Source: Acaryochloris marina MBIC11017 (GTDB taxonomy: Bacteria; Cyanobacteriota; Cyanobacteriia; Thermosynechococcales; Thermosynechococcaceae). Taken from it: 32,000 nucleotides of DNA. Made by a program: the position numbers and the translations under genes. Positions 6,597-25,497 of this stretch are shown one piece after another (positions within the stretch are counted from its first letter, which is position 1; every line of letters starts with the position of its first letter). Where the stretch lies: contig NC_009932.1 of assembly GCF_000018105.1 (NCBI RefSeq), positions 120,001 through 152,000 on the forward strand, read 5' to 3'. The notes beneath the pieces were generated by a model. That model saw only the letters and a program-made list of their open reading frames with translations, was not told the origin of the DNA and did not search any database.

Positions 6597-6971
6597 ATGT
6601 ATTCTACAGTTCTTAAGCCTTTAACCACTCAGCAACAAACCCAGCCAGATATGTGGCTGGTTCAGACTGAAGCCGATGGAATAGCCTTCATTAACGAACA
6701 CACTGAAGATCCTCTTTGCCCTCCCTATACTCTGGCTTGCGTCCTACTCAAGGACTGCGGCCCCTTCGATTCGGATATCGATATTGATTTCGATGAGCAT
6801 TGGGTGTTGATGGTGACCCGCAAGCCGACCCCTGAGGAGCGCACGACTCAAACCCGGATCGAAAACTGGGTTCTTTATCACCATGAGCTTAAGGGTGCTC
6901 TCAGTGACTGGTACACCGTTCAGGCCGATCAGACGGTTCGAGCTGAGAACGATTACGACGACGAATTCTAA
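6597..6971 (+). CDS. Hypothetical acidic protein
   Basis: 124-aa ORF, the first gene of the rightward cassette. Confidence 0.5.
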   Translation: MYSTVLKPLTTQQQTQPDMWLVQTEADGIAFINEHTEDPLCPPYTLACVLLKDCGPFDSDIDIDFDEHWVLMVTRKPTPEERTTQTRIENWVLYHHELKGALSDWYTVQADQTVRAENDYDDEF

Positions 6972-6979
6972 GAATTTCT

Positions 6980-6997
6980 AGGGGCACCTTTGCCCCT
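6980..6997 (+). other. GC hairpin without a U-tract
   Basis: AGGGGCA (6980-6986), loop cctt, then TGCCCCT (6991-6997). It starts 9 nt after the stop at 6971. Confidence 0.35.
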
Positions 6998-7041
6998 CCC
7001 ACTTCACTTACACCCACTCGCTACATAGGGGACTAAATATC

Positions 7042-7419
7042 ATGATCACCGCTGAAGACCTTCAGATCGAACTCGCGCATTGTCATTGCAGTGAATCTCA
7101 CTATCAGCATTGGCTGGGTATCCGTTACACAGAAGGCGTCAAAACACTCGCAGAGAAAGGGGAATGTTTCTGGCTCCTCGACGTGATCGCAAGTTATCAA
7201 CGGGTGCGACTCATCAAGTGCAATCCCAACCTCCAAGAATTCCAGCTTTGGTTGCTGACCGTAAACGACGACCATAGCGCTGTCTTAGCCTGCTACGAAG
7301 ACAGCGCTAGTACTTGCAGCCCTGTCATTACCCAAGATATTCCCTTCACTGATTTCGTCCTGCCAGAAATCAAGCTGTATGTGGAATACGGCGTTGTGCT
7401 GCTGCCGTCTGAGCATTAA
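7042..7419 (+). CDS. DUF6876-like protein, a family seen on plasmids, ICEs and phages
   Basis: ...SESHYQHWLGIRYTEGVKTLAEKGECFWLLDVIASYQ...EFQLWLLTV matches my recollection of the DUF6876 pattern (W/Y-x-H..., YTEGV, AYWL-D-IA). Recognised by eye only. Confidence 0.5.
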   Translation: MITAEDLQIELAHCHCSESHYQHWLGIRYTEGVKTLAEKGECFWLLDVIASYQRVRLIKCNPNLQEFQLWLLTVNDDHSAVLACYEDSASTCSPVITQDIPFTDFVLPEIKLYVEYGVVLLPSEH

Positions 7420-7484
7420 TCTCCCTGGCCTGGGTGGTGCCTAACCACCCGCCGCTACATTCCAACCTCAGCGAGATTTCAACA

Positions 7485-8468
7485 ATGAACCCTCAAGACT
7501 ATGATCGGACGATCATCATGTTCTCTGGTGGCAAAGATTCTTTGGCCTGCATCCTCTGGGCCATCGAGAACAACTGCCCCAAAATTGAGCTTTGGCATCA
7601 CCTTGTAGACGGGTTGCCCGTGCAAGGCCAGACCGCTTCCACCCTGATGGATTGGCCGATCACATCAACCTACTGCAAGGCTGTGGCCCAATTGCTTTCC
7701 ATCCCCATCTATTTTTCTTGGCTGGACGGTGGCTTTGAGCGTGAGATGAACCGCTCCAATCAAGCCAAAGCAAAAACTTGGTTTGAAGCGCCTGATGGAC
7801 TGCGCTCTGCTGGTGGCAATGGTGGTAAGCAATCTACGCGCCAGAAATTTCCCCAAATCTCCGCTGATTTAAGCATCCGGTGGTGTTCGGCGTATCTCAA
7901 GGTGGATGTTTCTGCGATCGCAATTCGGAATCAACCCCGATTTAACGACTCCAAAACATTAGTGATTACTGGGGAACGGGCCGAGGAGTCTCCTTCACGG
8001 GCCAAGTATGCAGAGTTTGAGCCAGATCGGACTGACAACCGTAACGGCAAATCCAAGCGCCATGTGGATCGATTTCGCCCGATTCATGGCTGGAAGGAGT
8101 CGGAGGTCTGGGCCATCATTCAACGACATGGCATCATCCCCCATCCTGCCTATCATCTCGGCTGGGGTCGTTTGTCCTGCATGTCCTGTATCTTTGGCAG
8201 TGCTAACCAGTGGGCCACTATCCGTAAGATTGCGCCAGCTCATTTTGAGCGGATCGCTAACTATGAACAGCAATTCGATACCACAATTCAGCGTCAACGG
8301 TCAGTCCGTGAGATGGCCAACCTAGGAACACCCTACGCCGAAGCCAATAATAGTCAACTCGTGGAAATAGCTCTTTCCAGTGAGTGGGGGGATTATCCTA
8401 TCTGGACCCATCTCCAAGCCTGGGCCTTGCCTGCCGGGGCTTATGGCGAGAGCAATGGACCGACTTAG
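7485..8468 (+). CDS. PAPS-reductase / DndC / IbrA-like PP-loop ATPase
   Basis: PP-loop IIMFSGGKDSLACILWA, then IRWCSAYLK and GRLSCMSCIF Cys motifs. The ATG at 7485 is preferred over the track start at 7434. Confidence 0.8.
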   Translation: MNPQDYDRTIIMFSGGKDSLACILWAIENNCPKIELWHHLVDGLPVQGQTASTLMDWPITSTYCKAVAQLLSIPIYFSWLDGGFEREMNRSNQAKAKTWFEAPDGLRSAGGNGGKQSTRQKFPQISADLSIRWCSAYLKVDVSAIAIRNQPRFNDSKTLVITGERAEESPSRAKYAEFEPDRTDNRNGKSKRHVDRFRPIHGWKESEVWAIIQRHGIIPHPAYHLGWGRLSCMSCIFGSANQWATIRKIAPAHFERIANYEQQFDTTIQRQRSVREMANLGTPYAEANNSQLVEIALSSEWGDYPIWTHLQAWALPAGAYGESNGPT

Positions 8469-8575
8469 GGGGCAGTTATGAATGCTTACACAATTCTCTA
8501 TTGCCTAATCTGGCAATCCATCTATTTTTCACTCTTTCTCTATTTCTTCATCCCCTTCGCTTCAGAGGATAAACA

Positions 8576-8848
8576 ATGAAACCCACAACAAGATACAAAC
8601 TCATTCCACAAGTTCAGTTCACCACAACGATTGAACTCCATGACCAGCAGACGGCAATCCTTAACCGCCTGGTGCTGGGTAGCAAAGATTTGACCGACGA
8701 CGAGGCTTTGGATCTTTGGTTGTCACTTAACCCCTATGTCCACACCTTCCAACATTCCACTCCCAGAGATATCTTTTCTTCGTTGAGATATGCAGCCCTA
8801 GCTGCTCTACCAGATAATCCCAAGCCAGCTTACCCCTGGAGCTGCTAA
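8576..8848 (+). CDS. Hypothetical protein
   Basis: 90-aa ORF with GAGG upstream of the ATG. Confidence 0.45.
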   Translation: MKPTTRYKLIPQVQFTTTIELHDQQTAILNRLVLGSKDLTDDEALDLWLSLNPYVHTFQHSTPRDIFSSLRYAALAALPDNPKPAYPWSC

Positions 8849-8866
8849 ATTCCGTGCACTCAGATA

Positions 8867-9091
8867 TTGAAGCCGATGGTCAGGACTTCATTTGCTGCTG
8901 AGGATCATTCTGCCTACGTTTCTTATAACCACTCAAACCTCATTCGCTTTTTGGAGAAAATCATGACTGCCACTCTAGACAACAACGCCACTCGCAACGC
9001 TCTAACCAAAGCGATCAAAGAGCATATCGATCCTGCTAAGCCTGAGAAGGTCAACATCAAAAAAATACATCGTCAAACAGTACAAACCTGA
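8867..9091 (+). CDS. Hypothetical small protein, possibly the 5' half of a gene split at an A7 run
   Basis: The internal ATG at 8963, preceded by GGAG, is the more convincing start. The frame ends at TGA 9089-9091, shortly after the A7 run at 9059-9065. Confidence 0.4.
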   Translation: MKPMVRTSFAAEDHSAYVSYNHSNLIRFLEKIMTATLDNNATRNALTKAIKEHIDPAKPEKVNIKKIHRQTVQT

Positions 9092-9191
9092 TGACCCCAC
9101 AGGACAAGACAAGCTGGCTAAGTTTGCCTGGGAATTACACCATGGCAATCGTAATCTGCGGAACCGGGATCATGTCCTCGAACTCTTCGGA

Positions 9192-9602
9192 TTGCTAACC
9201 CTGGAAGCGACGGGACTAGAACAGCGCAAAACCAATAAGGCCAAATGCTCTCCCCTAAAAGAGGCTGTATTCAAAGTGCTTAAGCAGGTAGCAGGCCAGG
9301 ACATTTTGATGGTGGTTGCGCTAAATGAGCTGATGGATCAACTCACGGTCACTCGCATCAATAGCTGGGAGACCTTTTTTAAGCAGCTTGCCATTAAGCG
9401 AACTGAACTCGAATCTCTGGCTGATACCGTGTATGAACTCTCGGGGGTTTCTCCTGGGGCGGTTGAAGATCTCGACGCTGTGATTGTGCCCCTCTACAAC
9501 GAAGCAAAAGGCCAAGACATCAAAGCCATTAACTGGGAACGTCGCTCTTGGTGGGACTGGGCACACAACCATTTGCTTGAGCAGGTTAGCAAAGCGGCCT
9601 AA
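9192..9602 (+). CDS. Hypothetical protein; its frame is open from 9006, with no ATG/GTG/TTG before the TTG at 9192
   Basis: The same frame reads ...DKLAKFAWELHHGNRNLRNRDHVLELFG upstream of the called TTG start, so the real 5' end is probably missing or frameshifted. Confidence 0.5.
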   Translation: MLTLEATGLEQRKTNKAKCSPLKEAVFKVLKQVAGQDILMVVALNELMDQLTVTRINSWETFFKQLAIKRTELESLADTVYELSGVSPGAVEDLDAVIVPLYNEAKGQDIKAINWERRSWWDWAHNHLLEQVSKAA

Positions 9603-9700
9603 CCCTCTCCCCCTGTCTGTACCTGGGTCAGCCCTGTGGCGATATCCCCCCAACCATCGGGGCTGGCCTTTCCTTATTCCTATTCCCTTGGAGAAATCCC

Positions 9701-10081
9701 ATGCAAGCCCATCACCTTAATTTGGCAGAATTTCTGCTCAACCCGCCTACGGTTAACCTGGCCTATTCTCCGGTGGCTGTTATGACGGTAGCGACGGCTA
9801 AGAATTTAATGCAATCCCAGGAATTATTACTCAGTGGTGCCCAGAAACTGTTTAATCCAGCGGTCTGGCCCCAGCTAGAACCAGAGATTGAGCGGATTCC
9901 CTTCGACCGACAGAAGGCCCAATGCTTCCGTGATTGTGTTGCCTATCTAATGGCCGAGGCGACGACGCTGAGGTCGGAACGGCGACATGTCGATGCCCTC
10001 AAGCATATGGAGGCGGCGTTGATGCTGGAGGCACTGGTCCATGGCGGTTATGACGAGGGGCCATTCGTTTCAGAACAGTAA
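9701..10081 (+). CDS. Hypothetical protein
   Basis: 126-aa ORF with GGAG 7 nt upstream of the ATG. Confidence 0.5.
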   Translation: MQAHHLNLAEFLLNPPTVNLAYSPVAVMTVATAKNLMQSQELLLSGAQKLFNPAVWPQLEPEIERIPFDRQKAQCFRDCVAYLMAEATTLRSERRHVDALKHMEAALMLEALVHGGYDEGPFVSEQ

Positions 10082-10121
10082 AAGGCATCGCCAAGTTCGG
10101 GACAAGTCAAACGATGCCTTT
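10081..10121 (+). other. 10-bp-stem hairpin at a gene end, without a U-tract
   Basis: AAAGGCATCG (10081-10090) pairs with CGATGCCTTT (10112-10121) around a 21-nt loop. It begins on the last base of the stop codon. Confidence 0.4.
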
Positions 10122-10154
10122 CATTGAACGAACCATTCAACGAGGTTATTCAAC

Positions 10155-10487
10155 ATGAATCATACAACTCTTCCCCAACGAGTTATCGACAGTATTGATC
10201 TGCCTTCCTACGAACTCCATACCAGACCGACTGGTGAGAACGACCGCAAGCTCAATGTCTTTTTCGGCAGTCGGTTGATCGGGTATGTCTACATCAACTT
10301 TATCCAGGGCCAATCCAATTACGTCGGCACCACGCTCAGATATCAGTCCTTCGGCCCTTACTCCCGGAGGACGGAAGCGGCTGAGGCTGTCTTAGAAGCA
10401 TTCAATGCAGGACTCACGGATGAGCAACGGCTGAGGGTCGCTCTTGCTCATGAGATGGCCGAGAACATGACCGTCATTGCTTGCTAA
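10155..10487 (+). CDS. Hypothetical protein
   Basis: 110-aa ORF with GAGG upstream. Confidence 0.5.
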   Translation: MNHTTLPQRVIDSIDLPSYELHTRPTGENDRKLNVFFGSRLIGYVYINFIQGQSNYVGTTLRYQSFGPYSRRTEAAEAVLEAFNAGLTDEQRLRVALAHEMAENMTVIAC

Positions 10488-10519
10488 TCCCCAACAGCTA
10501 GAGATTTGGAGTATTCATC

Positions 10520-10930
10520 ATGCCCACTATCCACATTGCCAATCTGAGAAAGTCCCGGCAGCTTCAACCCGGTGTTCGATGTGATCGGGGGACTCCTTTA
10601 GGCAATCCTTTCCATATGTTCGCTGAATCAGAGCGAGATCGCTGCATTGCGGCTTTCCGGGTCTTCTTGTATGAGGTTGCCATTCTGGGAAATGAACCTA
10701 GCCAAGACTTGATTCGCAGAATTGCTGAGCAGCACAAGGTTATGCCCAGCGGTAGTTATAAACCATTCGGTCGAGGTGCAATGATGGCAGCGCTGGAGGC
10801 GCTGGGCCAGAAGTCTGAAGTAACGTTGCTGTGCTGGTGTCATCCCAAACCCTGTCACTGTGATGTGATCAAGGCTTTCCTTGAATGGAAGTGCCCAGCC
10901 CCCCAGCAGCAAACATTGGAGGTTTTGTGA
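10520..10930 (+). CDS. DUF4326 domain protein
   Basis: RCDRGTPLGNPF ... LLCWCHPKPCHCDVI is the DUF4326 signature. GGAG lies upstream. Confidence 0.8.
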   Translation: MPTIHIANLRKSRQLQPGVRCDRGTPLGNPFHMFAESERDRCIAAFRVFLYEVAILGNEPSQDLIRRIAEQHKVMPSGSYKPFGRGAMMAALEALGQKSEVTLLCWCHPKPCHCDVIKAFLEWKCPAPQQQTLEVL

Positions 10931-11307
10931 TGCCGATGATCCGGGCAAGATACCCCGATAACTGGGACGAGATTGCAACACGGGTTAAGGATGCTGCTAA
11001 CTGGCGTTGCACTCAGTGCGGTAAACCCTGTCGAAAGCCGGGGGTCGAGTGGCCGCATTTCGCTTTCTGGCTGATGATTACGCACCCTGAATGGTTCCCA
11101 AACACTTCAGAGGGGGAGGAATAGAAGCCTCAGCGATTCACTCTCACAGTGGCCCACCTGGATCAGGATCCGCAGAATAATCACCCAGATAATCTCAAAG
11201 CGCTCTGTGCGCCCTGCCACTTGAAATTTGATGCGCCATTCCGAAAAGCCAATGCGTACACAAAGCAGGAATGGTTTGGACAGATGAAGTTGGAGGATTT
11301 GTCATGA
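10930..11307 (+). pseudogene. HNH endonuclease interrupted by one in-frame TAG (11122-11124)
   Basis: The start overlaps the DUF4326 stop (TGATG). The first half carries WRCTQCGKPC. After the TAG the same frame continues KPQRFTLTVAHLDQDPQNNHPDNLKALCAPCHLKFD, which is the HNH core plus the second CxxC. It ends at TGA 11305-11307. Confidence 0.75.
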
Positions 11308-11564
11308 ATAAACAAATGTGGAACTTCATTCAAAGAGGCCGAGGTGTCTTGCAACTAAAGCCACTGGGATGCCTGAGTAATCACAGCCCGTCCTTTTGCT
11401 CTGGATGTGAACCTGGGCAGTACTACGAGTGCCAAGCCTGTGGCTATCTTCAGCCCTGGTGTAAAGGAGCTGATGATGACTACCCTGAAATTTGTGATGA
11501 CTGCTGGGCTATCGCTGAACAACTGCACAAAACCATTAAAACCCCAATGGAATCCGAGAAATGA
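11304..11564 (+). CDS. Small Cys-rich (zinc-binding-like) protein
   Basis: ATGA overlap with the HNH stop and GGAGG at 11292-11296. Contains CSGC...CQAC...C...CDDC. Confidence 0.5.
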   Translation: MNKQMWNFIQRGRGVLQLKPLGCLSNHSPSFCSGCEPGQYYECQACGYLQPWCKGADDDYPEICDDCWAIAEQLHKTIKTPMESEK

Positions 11565-11866
11565 ACGCAGCCACAAACAAATTAACCCCATCAACACAGC
11601 CCAAAGCTGTATTGCAACCCTTATCACAGCAATATCAATTCCAATCCCACGATCCTAGCCATGAAAGGGCACTGGGATTTGGTGATAGTCCATCGGCTTT
11701 GGCTTTATTCTGTGATCGTTCCAAAACAAGCACTTGGTATATCCTCGATAAAGACTCTGAACCTGTTGAGCTACTGAAGCCTGCTTTAACGGGTTACCTG
11801 ATCAGCATCGAGTTCGTTCCCAAGGAATTCAGAGGAAAGCCTTCGGGTCGGTTCAAATCAGGGTAA
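11561..11866 (+). CDS. Hypothetical protein, last gene of the cassette
   Basis: ATGA overlap with the previous gene. 101 aa. No family recognised. Confidence 0.45.
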   Translation: MNAATNKLTPSTQPKAVLQPLSQQYQFQSHDPSHERALGFGDSPSALALFCDRSKTSTWYILDKDSEPVELLKPALTGYLISIEFVPKEFRGKPSGRFKSG

Positions 11867-14640: not shown

Positions 14641-15072
14641 ATGCTTATTCGATCAGTTCATGCTGTTGAGTGGGCCGATCCTGTCTGCCTGCCTATATTT
14701 AGCGCTCCAGTTTCTGCTGGTTTCCCCAGCCCAGCCGACGACCATTTGCAGAAAAATCTGAATTTACAAGATGCCTTGATTCCTCGACCCGCCGCGACCT
14801 TTCTGATGCGAGTCGAGGGGGATTCGATGGAAGGCTGTGGGATATTCTCTGGGGATTTGTTGGTTGTGGATCGCTCCATTGATCCAGTGGATGGAGCTGT
14901 AGTGATAGCGGTTCTAGAAGGTGAGTTTACAGTGAAGCGGCTCCGTAAAACCCAAGGAAAAATTTTGCTGACTGCTGAGAACCCAGACTATCCTCCCATC
15001 ACTGTGCAAAGGGGAATGGATTTCTCTGTCTGGGGGGTCGTTACATTTGTGGTTCACGGGTTAGAAGCTTGA
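14641..15072 (+). CDS. umuD: UmuD-like S24 peptidase (Pol V accessory subunit)
   Basis: Ala26-Gly27 cleavage-site candidate (PVSAGFPSP), Ser nucleophile motif EGDSMEG and Lys motif FTVKRL. Confidence 0.85.
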   Translation: MLIRSVHAVEWADPVCLPIFSAPVSAGFPSPADDHLQKNLNLQDALIPRPAATFLMRVEGDSMEGCGIFSGDLLVVDRSIDPVDGAVVIAVLEGEFTVKRLRKTQGKILLTAENPDYPPITVQRGMDFSVWGVVTFVVHGLEA

Positions 15073-16334
15073 AACGATATCTGATCGGGCTTTGTGACTG
15101 TAACTCTTTCTACGCAAGTTGTGAGTCAGCTCTGAACCCTCGCTTGCAGCATAAGCCCGTGGTCATCGCTTCTAACAATGATGGGGTTGTTGTGACAGCC
15201 AATGCAAAAGCTAAAGCCTTAGGTCTGGTTATGGGTGTGCCCTTGTTCAAAGTCCAAGAGCTGATCAAGAAACACGATGTTAGAGTTTTCAGCTCCAACT
15301 ATGCGTTGTATGGTGATTTGTCCTCACGAGTGATGACGATTCTGGAGACCTTTACACCAGAGCAAGAGATCTATTCCATTGATGAATGCTTTATGCGAAT
15401 GCCGGAATTTGCTGAGGCTACGACATACTCTCATAAGGTGCGTAAAACGGTGTTGCAATGGACGGGGATTCCTGTGTCCATTGGCATTGCAACTTCCAAG
15501 ACTCTCTCAAAGATTGCCAATCATGTAGCAAAAAAGCAAAAGCAGTATGGTGGGGTGTTTGATATTTCCACTGCCCGTAATGCTGAGGGGATTTTGGCTA
15601 CCTTTCCAGTCGCAGATATCTGGGGGATTGGTCGCCAATACAATAAGTGGTTGTTAAGCCAAGGGATTGAGACAGCGAAGGAGCTGCGGGATGCTAACGA
15701 GGGGCTAATCCGCAAAAAAATGGGCGTGGTGGGGGTGAGGATGATCCATGAGTTGCGAGGTATTTCATGTTTGCCCCTGGAGCTGGTTGCTAAACCAAAG
15801 AAGGAAACTTGCGTCTCTCGCTCTTTCGGTCAGCCAGTGACGGAGTTAGCGGATTTGCAGGAAGCGATTGCGGCCTATGCATCTAGGGCAGCGGAGAAGC
15901 TACGCCATCAAGAACAAGTATCAGAGGCAATGGTTGTCTTCGTGCGGACAAGCCCTTTTAAGCCAGGATATTTTCGCCAATCTGCTACTGTGCAATTCCC
16001 CATAGCGACCAACTATACTCCAACAATTGTGGAATCTGCTCGTAATGCGATGAAGCGAATCTATGAACCGGGTCGAGAATTTCAAAAAGCGGGGGTGCTG
16101 ATGGTGGGTTTGTGTCCTGAGACGACTATCCAAGGGCACCTCTGGGAGAAGGATGAGGGTTGGGAGAAACGGAAGCGCCTGATGTCGATCATGGATGAAG
16201 TGAATGATCGGTTTGGCCGTGGAACGCTGGAGATTGCTGCGTCGGGGCTAAGGCAGACCTGGCGAATGCAGTCGAAGTGGCGATCACCGAGGTATACGAC
16301 GTGTTGGGCTGAGCTGCCAGTGGTGAGTTGTTGA
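15069..16334 (+). CDS. umuC: Y-family DNA polymerase, UmuC-like
   Basis: LCDCNSFYASCE...SIDECF...GIATSKTLSKIAN...IWGIGR. The TTG start overlaps the umuD stop (TTGA, 15069-15072). Confidence 0.9.
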   Translation: MKRYLIGLCDCNSFYASCESALNPRLQHKPVVIASNNDGVVVTANAKAKALGLVMGVPLFKVQELIKKHDVRVFSSNYALYGDLSSRVMTILETFTPEQEIYSIDECFMRMPEFAEATTYSHKVRKTVLQWTGIPVSIGIATSKTLSKIANHVAKKQKQYGGVFDISTARNAEGILATFPVADIWGIGRQYNKWLLSQGIETAKELRDANEGLIRKKMGVVGVRMIHELRGISCLPLELVAKPKKETCVSRSFGQPVTELADLQEAIAAYASRAAEKLRHQEQVSEAMVVFVRTSPFKPGYFRQSATVQFPIATNYTPTIVESARNAMKRIYEPGREFQKAGVLMVGLCPETTIQGHLWEKDEGWEKRKRLMSIMDEVNDRFGRGTLEIAASGLRQTWRMQSKWRSPRYTTCWAELPVVSC

Positions 16335-16398
16335 GGGGAATTGCAGATAGGCAAATTGTAAGACTGATCCTGGTGATTTGATGTAGACCATCTTCTCG

Positions 16399-17514
16399 CT
16401 ATCCGACATTCTGAAAGAGAATCGATAAACGAGTAATCAAAGCTCCAAGAAGAACATAGCCGATTAATACTTGAGACATGACTAGAAATTGACCAGTAAT
16501 ACTCAAAGGGTGTGCATGGATTTCACCAAAGCCCAGAGTCGTCATTGTAACAACGGAAAAATATAGCGACCTAAACCAAAGCTCAAACAAACAAATAAAC
16601 CCCAAATTTTTCTTGCATAAACTTTGGTTCAAAATATCATCGCTAAAATCAACTAAAAATGGGTTAGCGAAAGGTGTAGGCCAAGAATCTCCATCAGGTG
16701 CTGGAGTTCCTATAAGATATGCAATTGAAAAAAATAGAGAACAGCCTACAAAAGTACAGATAATCTTTGTTGTAGAACTACCATAGTCAGATATCCACCA
16801 GAAAATTCTAATTACTTGTGTATAAGCAGAAACAAAAATATTAATCGCAAAAACAAGAATTAAACTAAGCCCAGGAGTTTCTAGTATTAATGCGGGAATC
16901 TTCTGTAAAATATTTATTCGCTTGTTGTTTCTTTTGAGCCAATGCAGATAGTGTTTTTTCCATTTGCGCCAATTCGCATATTGTTTGTTCCAGAATATCT
17001 TTCGAATATTTCGTTTCAGCTTTGATTTTATGTGTTCTTCAATTCTGGCACTGTCTAGTCCCACAGCAGAAAAATTAGTTTTGTCATCAATCCTACAATC
17101 TGTGATCCCAGTCTTGCCATCAACAAGTGAGAATTTTGCAATCGTTCCACACAGGTCCACATTGTCGAAAATAGTGCCTCTCAAATCAACACCAGATAAA
17201 TTAGCTTCACTAAGATCAACACACCAAAAATCAATTCCACTTAAATTAGCTAGTCTTAAATCAGCTTTCTTTAGTATGGCTCCAGCTAAATATGATCCAG
17301 TCAAGTTTGCTCCTTTCAAGCAAGCCTTAGTAAGAACTGTTCCACCAAGCAATGATTGACTAAGATTAGCTTCGCTTAATTTAACTCCACTCAAGTTTTT
17401 TTCACACAAGTCTATTTGTGATAAATCAGGTTTTACACCTGGGTGACTTTCCCTCCAGCGATTCCAAGAATCGACTCCGTTCTTTAACTCCACAACATGC
17501 TCAGGATTTGCCAT
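16399..17514 (-). CDS. Pentapeptide-repeat domain fused to a 2-TM ion channel (Ion_trans_2-like)
   Basis: The N-terminus WNRWRESHPGVKPDLSQIDL is followed by repeats ANLSQ/ANLTG/ANLSG/ANLSG. The C-terminus has TM helices and the pore signature VVTMTTLGFGE (16522-16548). Confidence 0.8.
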   Translation of the reverse strand: MANPEHVVELKNGVDSWNRWRESHPGVKPDLSQIDLCEKNLSGVKLSEANLSQSLLGGTVLTKACLKGANLTGSYLAGAILKKADLRLANLSGIDFWCVDLSEANLSGVDLRGTIFDNVDLCGTIAKFSLVDGKTGITDCRIDDKTNFSAVGLDSARIEEHIKSKLKRNIRKIFWNKQYANWRKWKKHYLHWLKRNNKRINILQKIPALILETPGLSLILVFAINIFVSAYTQVIRIFWWISDYGSSTTKIICTFVGCSLFFSIAYLIGTPAPDGDSWPTPFANPFLVDFSDDILNQSLCKKNLGFICLFELWFRSLYFSVVTMTTLGFGEIHAHPLSITGQFLVMSQVLIGYVLLGALITRLSILFQNVG

Positions 17515-17633
17515 CCTTACCCCAAGAAAACAAAGATAAAATCAAGATAAGCTAAATCTTTTCAATCTATCAAACCCTTCCACCCTAAATGAATCAAAGA
17601 CACATCCTATGATTCATCACCAATAGCAAATCT

Positions 17634-17987
17634 TCACCCTTCCCGATCACCAAAAGAACACTCCACCGTGATTTTGAGATTGCATTCCCCGCTGCCCTTC
17701 GTGATGTAAGGCACTCCCCCCTCACCCGCGACTTTGACCCCGAATTCCAAAGTCACCTTATCTACATTGGCCGTTGCCACCTCTTTGAAAGCATTGAGGG
17801 TATAGGCCGTATAGGTGCGAATCGTCCCCTGCATGGCCTGGAAGTTTTTCAAGGCCACATCACCCATGCCTTTCGAGGTGCGGGTGGTCCCTTCAGACTC
17901 AGGCTGTGGATGTGCTGATACATCATCCTCCGCTTCGATATAGATCACGGTTCCATCATTGAGGTGGATCGGGGCTAATTGGGTCAT
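17634..17987 (-). CDS. Trypco2-like (CU044_2847 family) small protein
   Basis: N-terminal IHLNDGTVIYIEAEDD, a central linker, then C-terminal VTLEFGVKVAGEGGVPYITKGSGECNLKITVECSF. This matches my recollection of the family pattern (VEFGxKL..EAG..IAK...EA..KVTL.W). Confidence 0.65.
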   Translation of the reverse strand: MTQLAPIHLNDGTVIYIEAEDDVSAHPQPESEGTTRTSKGMGDVALKNFQAMQGTIRTYTAYTLNAFKEVATANVDKVTLEFGVKVAGEGGVPYITKGSGECNLKITVECSFGDREG

Positions 17988-18079
17988 GGATTGGCTCTCG
18001 CGGTAAGATACGGCAATAGTGATACTGCATGGTCGAAAACATTCTATGGTGATATCAAATCCGCTGCTTATCTCAACTT
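17988..18079. promoter_or_regulatory. Divergent intergenic region, presumed bidirectional promoter
   Basis: Only 92 bp separate the Trypco2-like start (17987, minus) from the caspase-NTPase start (18080, plus). No boxes can be assigned confidently. Confidence 0.3.
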
Positions 18080-21000
18080 ATGAGCCGAGATGCCCTCATT
18101 GTTGGAATTAACCGCTATCAGTATCTCCCGGATCTGAAAGCCCCTGCCCTGGATGCAGAAGCCATTGCACAACGGTTGGAGGACGATGGAGAGTTCGATA
18201 CTCTTTACCGATTACCGGAGATAATAATCCAAGGGGAAACGAAAAAGCCTGAGATTGGTGAAAAGGGATCTGTTTTTATCACGAAATTAAAGCAAGCATT
18301 AACGCAACTCTTTTTACCTAAAAGCCAACAAATACCCAAAACAGCTCTGTTTTACTTTTCTGGACATGGCTTGCCAGATCAAGATTTAGTGGGGGTTGAT
18401 AAAGGTTATTTGGCTGCAAGTGATACCAATAAAAACAACCCTAGTTCGGGTCTGTCCCTGCTTTGGCTGCAATCATTACTATCCAAAAGCCCTATCCAGC
18501 AACAAATTATCTGGTTAGATTGCTGTCATAGTGGTTCGATCCTTGTCAATGTCGGGGCAGCCAACCCTGGACATGGAGAAAGTAAAGACCGCTGTTTTAT
18601 TGCCTCATCACGGGACTTTGAAGAGTCTTGGGAGGACTTGAATAGTCCCTATAGTGTGCTTACCAAGGCGTTACTGGATGGGTTAGATCCCAAGCCTTTA
18701 CCAGGACGTTGGATCGATACTTTTTCCCTGGTGGATTATGTCAACCAAGCACTGAAAGGAGAACTGCAAACCCCCGTCTGTACCAACTTTGGGGAAGCCA
18801 TTAATCTCACCCGGAGCTGGCAAGTCCAAGAAGAATCAACCAGTGTAAGTCAAGTTGATAGCGGTATTTGCCCCTACAAAGGATTGGAGTTTTTTGACTG
18901 CAATGATGAAGACCCCAAATACTTCTATGGCCGGGAGCAGTTGGTGGGTCAGCTCCTCGATCAGGTGCGAACCTCTAACTTTCTGGCATTGGTAGGGGCT
19001 TCCGGGAATGGTAAATCTTCAGTTCTGCGAGCTGGGTTGCTGCACCAACTGAAGCTGGGGCGACGTATTTCAGGGAGTGAACAGTGGCGAATTCGGATTG
19101 CTCGACCGGATCGCCAACCGATACAGAATCTAGCCCTGGCCTTTGTCGAAGAGGGATTGTCCGATGGAGATAGGGCAATTGCTTTGGATAAGGTGGTTGG
19201 ATTATTGGATAAAGGGACTGCGGGATTACAGCGATTAGTCCAGGCATCTGCTGCACCTCGAACGGTTCTGGTGATTGACCAATTTGAAGAGGTCTTTACC
19301 CGCTGCGAGAACCCAGAGGAACGAGAGCATTTCTTTGCTTGTTTGATGGGAGCTTTGTTAGATGTAGACAACAAGCTTTGCCTGATCATCGCCATGCGGG
19401 CAGACTTTATCGTCAAATGTATGGAGCAGGAATATAGTGGCTTGGCCCGACTGATTGATCAGCAAATGGTCAGTGTGTTGCCAATGAAGACCAATGAGTT
19501 AAGGGCTGCGATTTGTAGACCAGCAGAACAGGTGGACCTACAAGTTGAATCTGCCCTGGTCACTGAAATACTAAACGATATCGAAGGGGCACCGGGTAGT
19601 CTACCGTTGTTGCAATACACCCTGAAAGAACTTTGGAATCAGCGACAGGACAATCAACTAACCTTCGCCTCCTATCAAATTTTAGGCGGAATCCAAGGCA
19701 CGTTGGATCAACGGGCGACGGCTATCTATAACAGCTTTGATAAAGCAGAACAGCAGACAGTTCAGCATATTTTTCAGCAATTGACTCAGTTGGGGGAAGG
19801 CACGGAAGATACTCGGCGGCGAGTATTTCAGGATGACTTGATAACGGAGCCAAAGCATCCAGCTCAGCGAGTACAGCAGGTCATTGAACGACTATCTAGC
19901 CCCGAGAATCGCCTGATCGTCACCAGTGAAGTGGTCAGCAAATCCGACCAATCCACCCGCATGTCGATTGTGGATGTGGCTCATGAAGCCCTGATCCGTC
20001 ACTGGAAGCTACTTCGGCAATGGATTGAGCTGAATCGAGACTTACTGAGGAAGCAACGCAGGATTGAGGCTAGTGCGATCTCATGGCGAAATCAGGGGCA
20101 AAAGTCTGGGTATCTATTGCAGGGACTACCACTGATTGAAGCCATTCAATTTAACAAGGATAAGTCTGTGACTTTTCCCTTGTCAGACAATAGCAAAGCT
20201 TTTATCCAGAAAAGTGTCAGAGAACGCCGATTGAATCAGCTTAAGGCTGGAGCATGGTTGATTGTCCCAGCATTACTGATTCTCATCGTTAGCGAGTATA
20301 TTATTCGAGAAAGTGGTGTCAGTAGAAACTACGTTCAATTGGACGGGGCAAGATCCACTGGAGAGAAACAAGCAGTTGATAGCTTAGTGGGAGGATGCAA
20401 TGCTCAAAAAGAGGTACAGTGGCTACCAAGTTATTTAGCAGAACGTTTATTTGGGAATTGTCGCCCTCTGATACAAGCTCAGTTGGAGCATGCCAAACTC
20501 CGCCATGCTGACCTCCGCAGCGCCATTCTAATTCGTGCCAACCTTTTCGCGGCTGACCTCAACTTTACCGACTTTAGCGATGCCGACCTTCGCTACGCTG
20601 ATCTCCGCCGAACCGACCTCAACTTCACTGATTTTAACCACGCCAATCTCAATTTCACCAAGTTGGGTAATGCCAACCTCAACGGTACGAACCTCAGTGA
20701 TGCCAACCTCATCGGCACCAACCTATACAGCGCTGATCTACGCAACGCCATTCTCATTCGCGCCAACCTATTCAGTACCAATCTTAGTAACGTCAATCTC
20801 TATAGCGCTGACCTAAGTAGTACCGACATGAGCAGTGCCAACTTAAGTAACGCCGATCTTATCCGAGCTAACCTCAGTGGTGCTGACCTCCACAATACCG
20901 ATCTTTTCTACGCCAACCTTAGTAACGCCAACCTTAGTAACGCCAACCTCAGCAATGCTATATTATTGAGTTCAAATCTTCGAGAGACAAAAAATCTCAC

Positions 21001-21193
21001 CCAAGCTCAGCTAGAGGGCGCGGAACATCCATTGATTTGTAATTCACCTCTTCCCCAGAACATCAGGATTGACCGCAACAGAGACTGTGACAAGGTAGCT
21101 GCTGTCTTACACGAAAGATATCCACAGTTGTTCAGAGATATAGAAGAAGCAGAAAAACACGTTGAAGAACAACGACAAAGTAAGTGGAACTAG
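18080..21193 (+). CDS. Caspase (C14) / nSTAND1-type P-loop NTPase / single TM / pentapeptide-repeat protein
   Basis: Caspase dyad FYFSGHG (His codon 18365-18367) and WLDCCHSG (18521-18529). CPYKGLEFF...FYGRE, Walker A LVGASGNGKSS (~18994-19020) and Walker B VLVIDQFEE. TM helix AGAWLIVPALLILIVSEYII (~20247-20310). About 36 A(D/N)LxX pentapeptides lie at ~20477-21010. Confidence 0.9.
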   Translation: MSRDALIVGINRYQYLPDLKAPALDAEAIAQRLEDDGEFDTLYRLPEIIIQGETKKPEIGEKGSVFITKLKQALTQLFLPKSQQIPKTALFYFSGHGLPDQDLVGVDKGYLAASDTNKNNPSSGLSLLWLQSLLSKSPIQQQIIWLDCCHSGSILVNVGAANPGHGESKDRCFIASSRDFEESWEDLNSPYSVLTKALLDGLDPKPLPGRWIDTFSLVDYVNQALKGELQTPVCTNFGEAINLTRSWQVQEESTSVSQVDSGICPYKGLEFFDCNDEDPKYFYGREQLVGQLLDQVRTSNFLALVGASGNGKSSVLRAGLLHQLKLGRRISGSEQWRIRIARPDRQPIQNLALAFVEEGLSDGDRAIALDKVVGLLDKGTAGLQRLVQASAAPRTVLVIDQFEEVFTRCENPEEREHFFACLMGALLDVDNKLCLIIAMRADFIVKCMEQEYSGLARLIDQQMVSVLPMKTNELRAAICRPAEQVDLQVESALVTEILNDIEGAPGSLPLLQYTLKELWNQRQDNQLTFASYQILGGIQGTLDQRATAIYNSFDKAEQQTVQHIFQQLTQLGEGTEDTRRRVFQDDLITEPKHPAQRVQQVIERLSSPENRLIVTSEVVSKSDQSTRMSIVDVAHEALIRHWKLLRQWIELNRDLLRKQRRIEASAISWRNQGQKSGYLLQGLPLIEAIQFNKDKSVTFPLSDNSKAFIQKSVRERRLNQLKAGAWLIVPALLILIVSEYIIRESGVSRNYVQLDGARSTGEKQAVDSLVGGCNAQKEVQWLPSYLAERLFGNCRPLIQAQLEHAKLRHADLRSAILIRANLFAADLNFTDFSDADLRYADLRRTDLNFTDFNHANLNFTKLGNANLNGTNLSDANLIGTNLYSADLRNAILIRANLFSTNLSNVNLYSADLSSTDMSSANLSNADLIRANLSGADLHNTDLFYANLSNANLSNANLSNAILLSSNLRETKNLTQAQLEGAEHPLICNSPLPQNIRIDRNRDCDKVAAVLHERYPQLFRDIEEAEKHVEEQRQSKWN

Positions 21194-21197: not shown

Positions 21198-21695
21198 TCA
21201 AAACACCAACTTCGCAATCGCCCCCTCAACCTGCTCATCGGTGACCTCAAGATACCCCGACAATGCGGCCAGCGTCCGATGTCCCAATATTCGCTGAATG
21301 TGCTTCGTCGGCACTCCAGCGTTGTGCATCCGTGTCAGGGCCGTGCGTCTGAAACTATGATTACTAAAGCCTTCCAGTCCCACCCGAGCAAAAGCTTGTC
21401 TCAAGATTCGGTCTGCTGAACTGACCCGGATATAAGAACGGCCATGACGACCAGGGAAAAGATAAGTGCGAGTCAAGTCAGGGCATAAGCCACTAAATAC
21501 TCATGCAACTGGGGATGCATCGTTACTTCTCGCGTATCCCGCTTACCCTTCGTCTGATGCCAGCGAAATAACACCGATGGCTTGGGTCCACTGACATTGA
21601 CCACATCACTGGTGAGTAATATACAGGCTTCACCGATCCTGAATCCGGTATAGAGGCACACACCAAAGAGGGCCAGATCGCGGGACTTGATTTCT
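21198..21695 (-). pseudogene. Tyrosine recombinase (phage integrase family) remnant: N-terminally truncated and frameshifted
   Basis: Two overlapping track ORFs in different frames. One reads ...SRDLALFGVCLYTGFRIGEA (Arg box). The other reads ...SNHSFRRTALTRM...ILGHRTLAALSGYLEV (HxxR, GH, Tyr). The frames meet at the tandem AGTCAAGTCA (21471-21480). An upstream stop at ~21696-21698 removes the whole N-terminal domain. Confidence 0.85.
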
Positions 21696-21779: not shown

Positions 21780-24700
21780 TTAGCCAAAGAGATCATCAAC
21801 TGCACCTAGAGTAATCAAGGAACTTTTCTGAGCATCTGTCAGCCCAGTGGTTCTTGAAATATTCGTTTTTTCATAGGGCCTTGAAGGTCTGAAGGTTCTA
21901 ATGCATTGCGCTGAATGCAAATCCCATAGCTTCACCGAGCCATCGTCACTTGCTGTGGCAATAGTTTGCCCGTCAGGGCTAAACTCAACCGAAATAACGC
22001 GAGCTGTATGGCCTTGAAAAATCTGTAGGCACTCACCCGTTTCCAAGGACCATAATCGTGCTGTTTGATCTTGGCTTGCACTTGCTAGACACTCCCCATC
22101 AGGACTGAAGGCCACTGACCAAATGAACTGTTTATGACCCGGTAACTCACGGATGCATTTTCTCATTTCAACTGACCAGAGTTGAATGGATTCGTAATCA
22201 CTCCCACTAGCAAGGATTTGACCATCAGGAGAAAATGCCACCGACCGAACTCTAGTACCAACATCAATAACCAAAGATTCTTCTGACTCCAAATACCATA
22301 GGCGAACAGTTAGATCATCACTGCCACTAGCCATGATATGACCACTCGGACTAAACGCGAGTCCCCAAATTCGGTTTGTATGCCCTATAAGCTGTTTCAA
22401 GCATTCCCCACTAGCTACCGACAAGAGTCTGACAAAGGAATCATCACATCCTGTTGCCAGCCATTTCCCATCAGGGCTAAACGCCAAAGGAAAGACTCGA
22501 TTACCATGCTCAATGCTATGTAAACAATGACCATCAGGATATGACCAAACCTTAACCACCCCATCTTGGCAGGCTGATGCCAGAATTTGACCTTGGTGTG
22601 AGAAAGCAACACCCCACAACCAATTTTGGTGCCCTCGAAAAACTTGGCGGTTATGACCAGTATGAATATCCCACACCTGCAAGGTCCCATCTTCATGTCC
22701 ATTTGCTAGAGTCTGCCCATTTGGATGAAAGGACACCGACCAAGTTCGATTGATGTATCCTTGCAGTGTTTGCTGACACACACCAGTGTCTACTCGCCAT
22801 AGCTTAACCATCGATTCACCGCCACTACTCACTAGAAGCTGACTATCCGGGCTAAAGGCAATACCCCAGATCACACTGGCATGTGCTTGAATTGTGCGAA
22901 AGCACTGATAACTGGCAATCTTCCAGATGCGAATCACACCTTGGTGATCCGAGCTAGCTAACCACTTTCCATCAGGACTAAAAGCAGCATCCCAAATAAT
23001 ACTTTGATGCCCCTGCAATTTTGCCAAACATGACCTTGTCCTAATCGACCAAACCATGACAGCGTTATCCCAGGCTGCACTCGCCAGTAAATTTCCATCT
23101 GGACTAAAGGTCACTGAGTTGACCATATTGCTATGCCCAGTTCCAGTCCACAGACACTGACCGGACCGAATATCCCAGAGCTTAACAGTGCCATCCTCGC
23201 TCCCTGTGGCGAGGGTCTCTTCATGAGGACTAAAGCAAATAGACTTCGGAGAAGCACCATGAACATCATTGATGGTTCTAAGACATGCACCGCTGTCCAG
23301 AGACCACAGTTTAAGGGTGTTGTCATCACTAACGGTTGCTAAGGTTTGTCCATCTGGGCTAATGTCAAGCGACCACACACGATCGCGGTGTCCTGACAAC
23401 ACTCGTAGACATTCGCCGCTTTCAACAGACCAAACCCGCACTTTGGAATCATCACTGCCACTAACCAGATATTGAGCGTCTGGGGTGAATGTCACACACC
23501 AAACCCAATCCCCAGTCCCTTGAAGGATTTTGAGGGGTTGATAGGAATGCATATCCCAGATGGTGATCTGGCCATCATTCCCCCCCGTGACCATACTTTG
23601 ACCATCAGAACTAAAAGCAACGGAAAAGAAGGCCCCAAAAGATTGAGTAAAGGTACAGTTTCGGAAGTCTGATCCAGTAAGGTCAATTTGGTGAAGAGTC
23701 ATGCCTTGAAAATCAGCTTGTCGAAATGTGAGCTGAGATAAGTTACACCCACTTAGGTCTGCTTGCAGCCAACGAAGGAGGTGCAGGCAATTGCTTGCAG
23801 CATAGCCCTGGGAAAATTGAGGATGTTCCCTGAAATATTGAAAGAACTGTAAAAGGGGACGTTGATCGGCAGCAAAGAGTTGAGCAATCGGCTCCAGAAT
23901 TAATCGGGCTTGTGTCTTTCTCAGATAGTCTTTGGCTACGGGCTTACAAAGTGCAAAGCGGTTAAAGATATCTAATGCATTAGTTTCCAATTCTTGGATA
24001 ACTTGTCGAATGATGCGGTCAGTTAAATACTCAATCAGTACTGGTTGAAGCGTAAAGCCAACTGAACTCTTCTCAAGGGGAAGTCTTCGTTTTAAATTCT
24101 GTAGGGTTGAGGGCAAGTCCCACTTATCACCGACACGAAGCAGATCGGTCCTGAGTGTAGAAATAGAAACAGGCTCCCGATGTAAGGCTAACCAATAGAC
24201 AACCTCTTGTTCTTTCCAGGATAATCGCTCAAAGTGCCAATCTAAGAGCTGTTTTAGATCGTCAAATATAGGTCGGCCTTCTCGAAGGAAGGCTGAAATG
24301 CTGCCATTGAAAACCTCATTGATATGATTTGCAGCCAGTTCAAGAGCAAGGGGGTTGCCATCGTAAAAGGATAGCAAGTGCTCCCAATCTTTATCAGTAG
24401 CAGTAAATTCTCCCAGTTGTGTTAAAAGTTGATGCGCTTCTTCAACCGAAAGCCCTTGCAACTCAAGGCACTGAATATGGTTTCCACCTCCTGTGACAGG
24501 ACGAATATCCCGTGGCTTTTCACGACTGGTGAGTAAAAGGCAGCTTTGGTGGTTTACATCTCTAATCTTTTGGACAAGTTGTCCGTAGCCTTCAAAGCCT
24601 TGACGATAGTTCCCTGCCTGCTCACCACCCTGAAGAATAGATTCAAAATTATCCAGTATTAAAAGACAGCGACGTGATTGAAGGTAGTAGAGCAACCGTG

Positions 24701-25373
24701 ATATTTGCTTATCTTCAGATCCAGGTAGTTCAGTTTCCTGCTGATGGGACAAGAATTTAACCACCTCGGTTAGATAATCCCTCAGTGGTGGAGCGTTGAG
24801 CAGTTTCCCCCAAAAAACAAAGTCAAAATCCTCTTGAATCCCATTTGCCAATTTGAGAGAAAGATCGGTTTTGCCGACACCCCCATGCCCTAGCTTGACA
24901 GATAAATGTGTTTTTCCAGAACCTCGGATCCCTACTATAGCTACGAGGCGACAGTGATCATCTACTATCCATCGCTGAAGCATTGAGAGTTCGCGAGTAC
25001 GACCGAAAAAAATAGAGACATCGGGTGCATCACCCCAGTTGCAACGAAACTCTCCGCATCTGGCATGTTTAATCCTAGTTTGAGTTTCGGACAGGGGCTC
25101 CAACAGGTTCAATTGATCATAAGGTTGACCCAGCAATAATCTACAGAGTCCATCGACCAGCCAATACTTGTAACTACTGTATTTGCTATTCAAGAAGTTA
25201 TGTATGGTCTGATCTGAGGGTACTTTTTCGCTAATGGTTTGTTCCCAATCGTGCAGGAACTTCGATATTTGTAGGCGGCTATATTCAGACTTTCTATATT
25301 TTTCGTAAAAAGCTGTAATAATTTTTTGCTTTAGCTGAGGCGAAATTTCAGTTGAGAAATTAACTCTGCTCAT
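21780..25373 (-). CDS. STAND NTPase: N-terminal HTH-like domain, NB-ARC/NACHT-type P-loop, short pentapeptide linker, 14 WD40 repeats
   Basis: DAPDVSIFFGRTRELSMLQRWIV, Walker A region GIRGSGKT...GHGGVGKT and Walker B CLLILDNFE. Linker ADLSGCNLSQLTFRQADFQG. Fourteen FSPDG-type WD blades. The ATG at 25373 (MSRVNF...) is preferred over the track start at 25484, which lies inside an 11-bp tandem repeat. Confidence 0.85.
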   Translation of the reverse strand: MSRVNFSTEISPQLKQKIITAFYEKYRKSEYSRLQISKFLHDWEQTISEKVPSDQTIHNFLNSKYSSYKYWLVDGLCRLLLGQPYDQLNLLEPLSETQTRIKHARCGEFRCNWGDAPDVSIFFGRTRELSMLQRWIVDDHCRLVAIVGIRGSGKTHLSVKLGHGGVGKTDLSLKLANGIQEDFDFVFWGKLLNAPPLRDYLTEVVKFLSHQQETELPGSEDKQISRLLYYLQSRRCLLILDNFESILQGGEQAGNYRQGFEGYGQLVQKIRDVNHQSCLLLTSREKPRDIRPVTGGGNHIQCLELQGLSVEEAHQLLTQLGEFTATDKDWEHLLSFYDGNPLALELAANHINEVFNGSISAFLREGRPIFDDLKQLLDWHFERLSWKEQEVVYWLALHREPVSISTLRTDLLRVGDKWDLPSTLQNLKRRLPLEKSSVGFTLQPVLIEYLTDRIIRQVIQELETNALDIFNRFALCKPVAKDYLRKTQARLILEPIAQLFAADQRPLLQFFQYFREHPQFSQGYAASNCLHLLRWLQADLSGCNLSQLTFRQADFQGMTLHQIDLTGSDFRNCTFTQSFGAFFSVAFSSDGQSMVTGGNDGQITIWDMHSYQPLKILQGTGDWVWCVTFTPDAQYLVSGSDDSKVRVWSVESGECLRVLSGHRDRVWSLDISPDGQTLATVSDDNTLKLWSLDSGACLRTINDVHGASPKSICFSPHEETLATGSEDGTVKLWDIRSGQCLWTGTGHSNMVNSVTFSPDGNLLASAAWDNAVMVWSIRTRSCLAKLQGHQSIIWDAAFSPDGKWLASSDHQGVIRIWKIASYQCFRTIQAHASVIWGIAFSPDSQLLVSSGGESMVKLWRVDTGVCQQTLQGYINRTWSVSFHPNGQTLANGHEDGTLQVWDIHTGHNRQVFRGHQNWLWGVAFSHQGQILASACQDGVVKVWSYPDGHCLHSIEHGNRVFPLAFSPDGKWLATGCDDSFVRLLSVASGECLKQLIGHTNRIWGLAFSPSGHIMASGSDDLTVRLWYLESEESLVIDVGTRVRSVAFSPDGQILASGSDYESIQLWSVEMRKCIRELPGHKQFIWSVAFSPDGECLASASQDQTARLWSLETGECLQIFQGHTARVISVEFSPDGQTIATASDDGSVKLWDLHSAQCIRTFRPSRPYEKTNISRTTGLTDAQKSSLITLGAVDDLFG

Positions 25374-25455
25374 TTGGAATAGGCCGAGGGATAAGTTTTT
25401 AGTACCACTATTGAATACATAATTTAGTTTACATTGGGTTGTTATTGGTTTGAAA

Positions 25456-25497
25456 TTGGCATCCACTTGGCATCCACTTGGCATCCACTTGGCATCA
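25456..25497. repeat. 11-bp tandem repeat, TTGGCATCCAC x3.8
   Basis: Units at 25456-25466, 25467-25477 and 25478-25488 are identical. A fourth unit (25489-25497) is partial. The array lies 83-124 nt upstream of the preferred start of the WD40 gene. Confidence 0.9.

Follow-up and report, generated by a model that had tools for sequence, protein, structure and literature searches.

A predicted two-gene module of a caspase-STAND protein and a Pepco/Trypco1 protein on a mosaic Acaryochloris plasmid, beside an apparently unrelated pentapeptide-capped channel gene

Our analysis concerns a stretch of 32,000 nucleotides from Acaryochloris marina MBIC11017 (contig NC_009932.1, positions 120,001 to 152,000; called the window in the following, with all coordinates counted from its first letter) and, within it, a gene for a small protein of the Pepco/Trypco1 family that lies head-to-head with a gene for a caspase-STAND protein. 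With a probability of about 0.75, we regard these two genes as the functional unit, a protease-effector module carried on a mosaic Acaryochloris plasmid, and exclude from it the ion-channel gene on the other side of Trypco1. A preliminary description of the same DNA had joined all three genes into one membrane-depolarising conflict system, and the coordinates, strands, lengths and gaps that it gave for the three open reading frames (ORFs) are all correct. The Pepco/Trypco1 gene (CU044_2847 family; 17634-17987, minus strand) encodes 117 amino acids (aa) and, judged from its profile matches, a predicted protease-activated pore-forming effector. Its divergent partner, the sensor-protease gene (18080-21193, plus strand; 1037 aa), combines a caspase domain, an nSTAND1 nucleoside triphosphatase (NTPase), one transmembrane (TM) helix and a pentapeptide array according to Pfam and motif matches, and is separated from it by a divergent intergenic region of 92 bp (17988-18079) in which promoters are presumed in both directions. 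The gene for the pentapeptide-capped 2-TM channel of the potassium-channel family (16399-17514, minus strand; 371 aa), which we place outside the module, starts 119 bp downstream of Trypco1.

The pairing can be followed over 32 Trypco1 loci that were gathered without reference to the channel and comprise three Acaryochloris plasmid loci, 24 from species-representative genomes and five metagenomic ones. Of these 32 independently found loci, 23 have a caspase gene next to Trypco1, nearly always head-to-head, and none has a channel gene there, so that the combination of a sensor-protease with a small Trypco-family protein stands as the conserved core of the earlier proposal. DNA similarity led to four related places on Acaryochloris plasmids, of which pMB04, pREC3 and pREC4 keep Trypco1 together with the divergent caspase gene and a spacer of, again, exactly 92 bp; downstream of Trypco1 they carry a gene for a 112-aa hypothetical protein, ParA/ParB or an RTX calcium-binding protein, and no channel. 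The fourth place, on pREC2 (locus L006), lacks an adjacent Trypco1 but keeps its caspase-STAND-repeat gene intact. Among the species-representative genomes, the caspase gene lies directly beside Trypco1 in 15 of 24 loci, head-to-head in 14, and two distant loci carry a subtilase in its place; the flanks examined, up to 10 kb long, contained a channel homologue at none of the 24. All five of the closest metagenomic relatives (77-97% identity) have a head-to-head caspase or nSTAND1 partner, and again no channel (0/5). The head-to-head order is thereby kept across cyanobacteria. The partner proteins use nSTAND1 or NB-ARC as their NTPase and diverge in their C-terminal regions, whereas Trypco1 and the caspase remain constant, and a constant effector pair with a variable sensor is the pattern typical of such systems.

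Two side observations on the distribution of the small protein may be added. On pREC4 (L007 1-223), a second CU044_2847/Trypco1 copy with 86% DNA identity to the window gene lies about 6 kb from the first, and on its start-codon side there are 64 bp that resemble window positions 16230-16293, the 3' end of umuC. Besides, four loci (L014, L025, L027 and L030) encode longer Trypco1 homologues of 150-171 aa with extended loops, which adjoin glycosyltransferase or amidase genes and have no adjacent protease; these may be orphans or partners of a protease encoded elsewhere.

The 117-aa protein matches the Trypco1 profile PF19493 over positions 2-97 of 98 (1.4e-25, 90.2 bits against a cutoff of 24.6) and the NCBIfam profile NF041216 (CU044_2847) with 1.7e-29 (102.3 bits against a cutoff of 23). 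It had been described as "Trypco2 / CU044_2847", of which the second name holds and the first has to be replaced, as the Pfam scan of the window proteins (E <= 0.01) returned Trypco1 alone. We found 435 homologues, the best 120 of which are almost all cyanobacterial, and their conservation is very high, with 19 invariant columns and 31 more that are at least 90% conserved. An AlphaFold2 model of the monomer, with a predicted local distance difference test (pLDDT) score of 63.7, consists of N-terminal strands, a disordered loop (residues 22-42, pLDDT < 50), a helix (residues 41-70) and a C-terminal beta-hairpin, and the modelled helix and hairpin would be compatible with a barrel-forming protomer.

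The 1037-aa protein begins with a Peptidase_C14 domain of the metacaspase/orthocaspase-like type (aa 5-234; 18092-18781, plus strand; PF00656, 1.3e-12, 48.4 bits against a cutoff of 21.4), the catalytic dyad of which is intact, with His96 in FSGHG (SGHG from aa 94) and Cys149 in DCCHSG (from aa 147); the generic 'caspase' model of PADLOC also matches (6e-12). The nSTAND1 NTPase domain follows at aa 265-676 (18872-20107, plus strand) and is covered almost completely by PF20703 (profile positions 1-378 of 379; 2.2e-121, 406.5 bits), including intact CPYKGLEFF (aa 264), Walker A GASGNGKSS (aa 306, with Lys312) and Walker B VLVIDQFEE (aa 396) motifs. All of these sensor motifs had been named before and are present, and the one TM helix claimed corresponds to a single strong TM-like segment at aa ~722-742 (20243-20305, plus strand; Kyte-Doolittle maximum 2.17 over GAWLIVPALLILIVSEYII). 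Next comes a pentapeptide array at aa ~785-995 (20432-21064, plus strand; PF00805, 1.5e-38) with about 40 repeats, close to the earlier count of about 36, which is predicted to act as an extracytoplasmic sensor. More generally, profile searches for Peptidase_C14, nSTAND1, Pentapeptide and Ion_trans_2 gave matches in the places where these domains had been expected.

Since the repeats follow a TM helix that in turn follows the NTPase, which must be cytoplasmic, the array should face outward. In comparison with paralogous genes, the DNA homology of the sensor gene loses collinearity at 20269-20599 and regains it at 20831-20945, while its caspase and NTPase parts and the final ~90 residues are conserved; lengths of 982 to 1140 aa occur among the related sensor proteins. 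This hypervariable array (window 20270-20945, aa ~730-955; compared with L004, L005 and L116) is the sole part of the cassette that is not collinear, and judged from the sequences this variation looks like a repeat-driven diversification of the sensing surface.

Trypco1 and Trypco2 were first defined as small peptidase-linked proteins of conflict systems (Kaur, Burroughs, Iyer and Aravind, 2020; PMC7159879). They have since been renamed Pepco, and SsPepco from Streptomyces subrutilus, likewise of 117 aa, has been studied experimentally (Evans et al., 2025; bioRxiv 10.1101/2025.11.14.688446). SsPepco pre-assembles as a stable 9- to 10-mer beta-barrel with an amphipathic basal helix, and the adjacent trypsin-like Avs4 cuts it after Ile97, upon which the 20-aa C-terminal tail is dropped and a membrane-permeabilising toxin results; Pepco was required for toxicity and sufficient once truncated, and the contexts named for the family include cysteine proteases, cyanobacteria and 'transmembrane STAND ATPases' (Evans et al., 2025). 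The pair of Trypco1 and a caspase-nSTAND1-TM protein fits this class, and therefore the small protein should be the effector and not the adaptor that the preliminary description had made of it; by analogy with SsPepco, it is likely that Pepco itself breaches the membrane. In view of the published family mechanism, both the suggestion that the protease acts on the Trypco-like protein and that of a membrane-dissipating output seem reasonable by analogy, the latter owing to the reported membrane permeabilisation by Pepco (Evans et al., 2025). The same study makes the earlier remark that no experimental description existed outdated for the Pepco-protease pair.

On this basis, we propose that the 1037-aa protein would serve as a membrane-anchored STAND sensor with caspase and NTPase in the cytoplasm and the pentapeptide beta-helix directed outward, a topology predicted from the domain order. 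A signal at the repeat or C-terminal region would trigger NTP-dependent oligomerisation, as expected from the general behaviour of STAND proteins, and thereby bring the caspase domains into the proximity needed for their activation. The active caspase would then cleave the divergently encoded Trypco1, and the processed beta-barrel oligomer would, in analogy to SsPepco, form a membrane-permeabilising pore that kills or arrests the cell in an abortive-infection or conflict response, the role of which may lie in phage defence, plasmid competition or stress-induced death.

As to the position of the cut, the variable Pro/Ser/Glu-rich loop of Trypco1 (aa 20-34) runs into a conserved T-R-T-x-K-G motif, which in the window protein reads T35-R36-T37-S38-K39-G40 (codons 17868-17885, minus strand) and lies in the disordered loop. 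Among 121 sequences, R36 is kept in 110, K39 in 116 (with Arg in the other five) and G40 in 117. The motif is kept in all full-length caspase-linked copies, distant ones included; copies linked to a subtilase lack it, and some orphans have a degenerate form. Metacaspases and orthocaspases bearing the SGHG and DxCHSG motifs are Arg/Lys-specific, so that R36 or K39 could plausibly be the cut site and this conserved basic motif is a candidate for caspase cleavage. At the other end, the window protein stops five residues past the last conserved strand (...KITVECSF-GDREG), and in related proteins 2-5 aa, in rare cases as many as about 13, follow the invariant ...KITVECSF, so that a cleavable C-terminal tail of the SsPepco type (Ile97 plus ~20 aa) is missing from the window Trypco1. 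With tails of just 2-5 residues, a cut within the caspase-linked clade would be likelier at the R36/K39 loop motif than in the C-terminal tail, and the motif together with the missing long tail suggests that the cleavage site differs from that of the studied Pepco. Whether caspase-linked Trypco1 is really activated by this internal cut at the Arg/Lys loop, with loss of an N-terminal segment instead of a C-terminal tail, we consider possible, though at odds somewhat below even. The cleavable tail may be a trait of the one studied, serine-protease-linked member and need not define the whole family.

The third gene encodes a channel protein that is 100% identical to an Acaryochloris marina protein and contains a Pentapeptide domain (aa ~30-125; 3.7e-25) and an Ion_trans_2 domain (PF07885, aa 313-368; 2.3e-10, 40.6 bits against a cutoff of 22.5). 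The filter TMTTLGFGE is encoded exactly where it had been located (16522-16548). The TTLGFG filter is invariant in 35 channel homologues, and alignment of the family reveals an invariant T-M-T-T-L-G-F-G filter together with a conserved FWWxSDYGSS motif ahead of M1. Like KcsA-like 2-TM potassium channels, the protein has a core of M1, pore helix, filter and M2; unlike these, it bears the FWWxSDYGSS motif, an N-terminal pentapeptide beta-helix cap and, in the window copy only, an insertion of ~50 aa. This insertion (aa ~182-232) is unique in comparison with the closest homologues; its basic stretch, RKWKKHYLHWLKRNNKR, leads into a hydrophobic segment (~22 aa), and the resulting third TM-like segment is unseen in the 34 other members. 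The label of a "2-TM pore" therefore describes the family core correctly but may not cover the window copy. Fusions of pentapeptide repeats with Ion_trans_2 form a family with 1381 matches at E <= 1e-3 in cyanobacteria, planctomycetes, Desulfobacterales and others. A literature search on pentapeptide-potassium-channel fusions retrieved no functional study and only eukaryotic KCTD9 and plant channels, of which KCTD9, with a T1/BTB domain and pentapeptide repeats, is a loose architectural parallel.

To judge the membership of the channel from its own side, we used 82 loci of its family that were gathered without reference to Trypco1 (two Acaryochloris paralogues and 80 metagenomic loci). The two paralogues lie on long contigs among unrelated neighbours, and in the 80 metagenomic loci, which add up to 588 kb and include 35 of at least 8 kb, neither Trypco1 nor caspase nor nSTAND1 turned up with the profiles used, those for Trypco1 and caspase being narrow. 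The 119 nearest neighbours at the 32 longest channel loci fall into 107 Pfam families of at most three members each, mostly with housekeeping functions, as judged from the best 25 of the 107 families, so that a lone weak match among the one-member families is possible. With such heterogeneous neighbours, the channel family behaves as a stand-alone gene. Furthermore, the DNA of eight related loci is collinear with the window only from 17630-17652 on, around the Trypco1 stop codon (17634-17636), which places the channel just outside the duplicated or exchanged unit. The preliminary description had also read the repeat type shared by channel and sensor as a hint of mutual recognition. The pentapeptide domain of the channel scores 50 bits against the neighbouring sensor, 55 against a paralogous sensor and 58-62 against other channels, and hence there is no special relationship between the repeats of the channel and those of its neighbour. 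The canonical topology of 2-TM potassium channels places an N-terminal cap in the cytoplasm; for this topology, the membrane would be expected to separate the channel cap from the sensor repeats. Two further proteins were considered as channels at related loci and rejected: a pentapeptide protein ~1 kb from the cassette on pMB04, which is without an Ion_trans_2 domain, and a 254-aa ORF just downstream of Trypco1 in L117, which is not a channel. Taken together, the channel appears to be an unrelated neighbour that was placed by local plasmid history and not a component of the system.

The only other cases in which Trypco1 is followed by a channel gene on the same strand are L008/L009 and L010, with channels 47-51% identical to that of the window. 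Their alignment with the window runs through the junction, from the 3' end of Trypco1 across the spacer into the beginning of the channel gene, and this shared homologous junction implies that all three adjacencies descend from one ancestral event. The Trypco1 copies are broken in both: an ISL3 transposase replaces the first ~17 codons and everything upstream in L008, and the L010 copy has a degenerate N-terminus and a 1-nt deletion that shifts the C-terminal frame. The channel ORFs of L008/L009 and L010 are intact with strong domain matches, which indicates that the channel is maintained without a working Trypco1. No caspase gene is present on the L008-L010 contigs, which measure at most 5.8 kb. 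As independent support for a link between Trypco1 and the channel, these loci are thus overturned by the junction alignment and the Trypco1 pseudogenes, and they speak instead against a functional dependence of the two.

Several observations weigh against a two-gene module as proposed here. Regarding the channel, the scan for promoters and terminators (16200-18300) detected no terminator in the 119-bp gap behind Trypco1, so that co-transcription of the channel is possible; promoter-like sites were no commoner than expected by chance in the same scan. In addition, the adjacency has persisted in three plasmid lineages, and since the L008-L010 contigs are short, the genomes in question could have a caspase-STAND gene at another place. 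Regarding the effector, a Foldseek search of the PDB with the monomer model gave nothing below E = 1, and a sequence search of the PDB with Trypco1 gave zero matches even at E <= 10. The beta-barrel oligomer is assumed, the model being that of a monomer and of moderate confidence only, and the activation known from SsPepco, in which the trypsin-like Avs4 removes the tail beyond Ile97, involves a tail that the window protein lacks.

With these points in mind, the three-component system of the preliminary description, in which a caspase-STAND sensor acts via a Trypco adaptor and proteolysis opens the pentapeptide-capped channel to depolarise the cell, is in our opinion very unlikely. It draws on the position of the channel gene, which follows Trypco1 in the same orientation and is not set off from it by a predicted terminator, on the recurrence of this order in L008/L009 and L010 in spite of the moderate identity of the channels, and on the presence of pentapeptide repeats in both channel and sensor. 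However, the three adjacencies amount to a single event, with Trypco1 a pseudogene and the channel intact in the other two cases; no channel was found at the 32 Trypco1 loci and no Trypco1 or caspase at the 82 channel loci, so that the co-occurrence of the three genes shows no excess beyond their shared local history and the channel is not upheld as effector or third component. The cassette boundary at the Trypco1 stop codon and the bit scores of the repeat domains (50 against the sensor, 58-62 against other channels) argue in the same direction, and in the studied system Pepco alone is a sufficient effector. A more restricted variant, in which the channel has been recruited as a second output in this plasmid lineage, co-transcribed with Trypco1, gated by the caspase and adapted by its 50-aa insertion, we consider highly improbable.

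A different possibility leaves the channel aside and gives Trypco1 a regulatory, adaptor or inhibitory role towards the caspase-STAND protein. The caspase would then kill through other substrates, for instance by degrading cellular proteins broadly, as has been suggested for certain prokaryotic caspases. The caspase-linked clade is indeed without the tail on which the activation of SsPepco depends, neither the monomer model nor the Foldseek search of the PDB supports an oligomer or pore, and pREC2 keeps its intact caspase-STAND-repeat gene without an adjacent Trypco1. Nevertheless, the tight and widespread coupling of the two genes and the very high conservation of Trypco1, the experiment at family level in which Pepco was needed for toxicity and sufficient when truncated, and the predicted helix and beta-hairpin, which are compatible with a barrel-forming protomer, speak for an effector, and we rate the regulatory role as unlikely. 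The locus might also be decaying cargo of a mosaic plasmid that has lost its function, in line with the integrase remnants directly downstream, the patchwork of plasmid blocks in the window flanks and the damage seen in relatives, such as the caspase of only 207 aa on pREC4, the fragmented nSTAND1 gene of L115 and the Trypco1 pseudogenes of L008 and L010. Against this, both window genes are full length, the catalytic dyad and Walker A/B are intact and the nSTAND1 and Trypco1 profiles are covered nearly completely, which leaves little probability for such a loss. The two-gene protease-effector module is consequently the explanation that we prefer.

In comparison with known systems, the module type of Pepco and protease is already described and the window pair is a further example of it. 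It resembles SsPepco-SsAvs4 in the combination of a Trypco-family protein of ~117 aa with a protease fused to a STAND-type sensor, and the same logic from cleavage to membrane would be expected. The differences are that the protease is a C14 caspase and not trypsin-like, that the genes are divergent and not tandem, that the sensor consists of nSTAND1, TM helix and pentapeptide repeats unlike SsAvs4, and that, as far as can be told from sequence, the window Pepco has a 5-aa tail and a conserved Arg/Lys motif in an internal disordered loop. With the VMAP ternary conflict systems, the locus shares the Trypco1 family, the association with peptidases and the occurrence in multicellular or filamentous bacteria; in those systems, Trypco1/2 go with trypsin-like peptidases in a vWA-MoxR-VMAP arrangement and caspases are paired with alpha/beta-hydrolases (PMC7159879), whereas here Trypco1 is paired with a caspase and the module contains no vWA or MoxR gene. 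The EACC1-caspase system also combines a small membrane-active protein with an N-terminal caspase on variable domains, sometimes nSTAND1, and leads from proteolysis to a pore; the window has no EACC1 gene, the partner is Trypco1, and the caspase_w_EACC1 model scores 84.4 bits, below its cutoff of 140. Finally, the tripartite layout, in which an effector or protease at the N-terminus and a repeat sensor at the C-terminus flank a STAND NTPase, and the activation expected by oligomerisation are shared with Avs and NLR-like STAND proteins; unlike the characterised Avs, which sense phage proteins in the cytoplasm, the window protein is membrane-anchored with a presumably extracytoplasmic sensor. 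PADLOC, in a 2023 library that predates Pepco, assigned no Avs model or named defence system and, apart from the generic 'caspase', only a weak mad8.

The surroundings of the module show the traits of a mosaic plasmid region, as the window flanks match Acaryochloris plasmids only in patches. Just downstream of the sensor gene lie the remnants of a tyrosine recombinase/integrase (21198-21661, minus strand; C-terminal part of PF00589, 4.5e-13). A tyrosine recombinase is also found near the caspase-STAND gene in several relatives (L004 9404-10789, L116 2188-4470, L117 2217-2882 and L005 1923-3935), directly convergent with it and intact in L004 and L116, where the window has kept remnants alone; the L116 recombinase carries a fused PRiA4_ORF3 domain, for which L117 has a separate gene in the same position. 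The Trypco1-caspase cassette may thus travel with a tyrosine recombinase. About 600 bp past the cassette, a 1234-aa protein (21780-25484, minus strand) carries 14 WD40 repeats in its C-terminal half; a P-loop-like GIRGSGKTH is visible by eye in the N-terminal half, and Pfam listed beta-propeller families only. If a STAND NTPase were confirmed in this protein, conflict-type genes would be clustered in the region. On the other side, a pair of umuD-like (Peptidase_S24) and umuC-like (IMS, IMS_C, DUF4113) genes with overlapping stop and start codons (14641-16334, plus strand) converges on the channel gene and represents plasmid-borne translesion-synthesis cargo. Further upstream, window positions 6900-11850 encode a DUF6876 protein, a PAPS_reduct-domain protein, a DUF4326 protein and several hypothetical proteins; this block is common to at least five Acaryochloris plasmids at 81-92% identity, in some of which ArdC-like genes adjoin, and it is probably part of a conjugative-plasmid backbone.

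For the neighbouring channel, comparative genomics does not bear out a defence effector in the form of a protease-gated ion channel, which spares work on a three-gene model; were the caspase-gated channel true after all, it would be a protease-opened ion channel serving as a defence effector. For the Pepco/Trypco1 family, the conserved loop motif offers a new if modest lead, in that the activation cut of caspase-linked members may sit elsewhere than in the studied Pepco. An outward-facing repeat array would moreover mean that a STAND system senses something outside the cytoplasm. The locus therewith adds a cyanobacterial, plasmid-borne, caspase-driven and membrane-anchored example to the Pepco-protease class of proteolysis-gated pore toxins.

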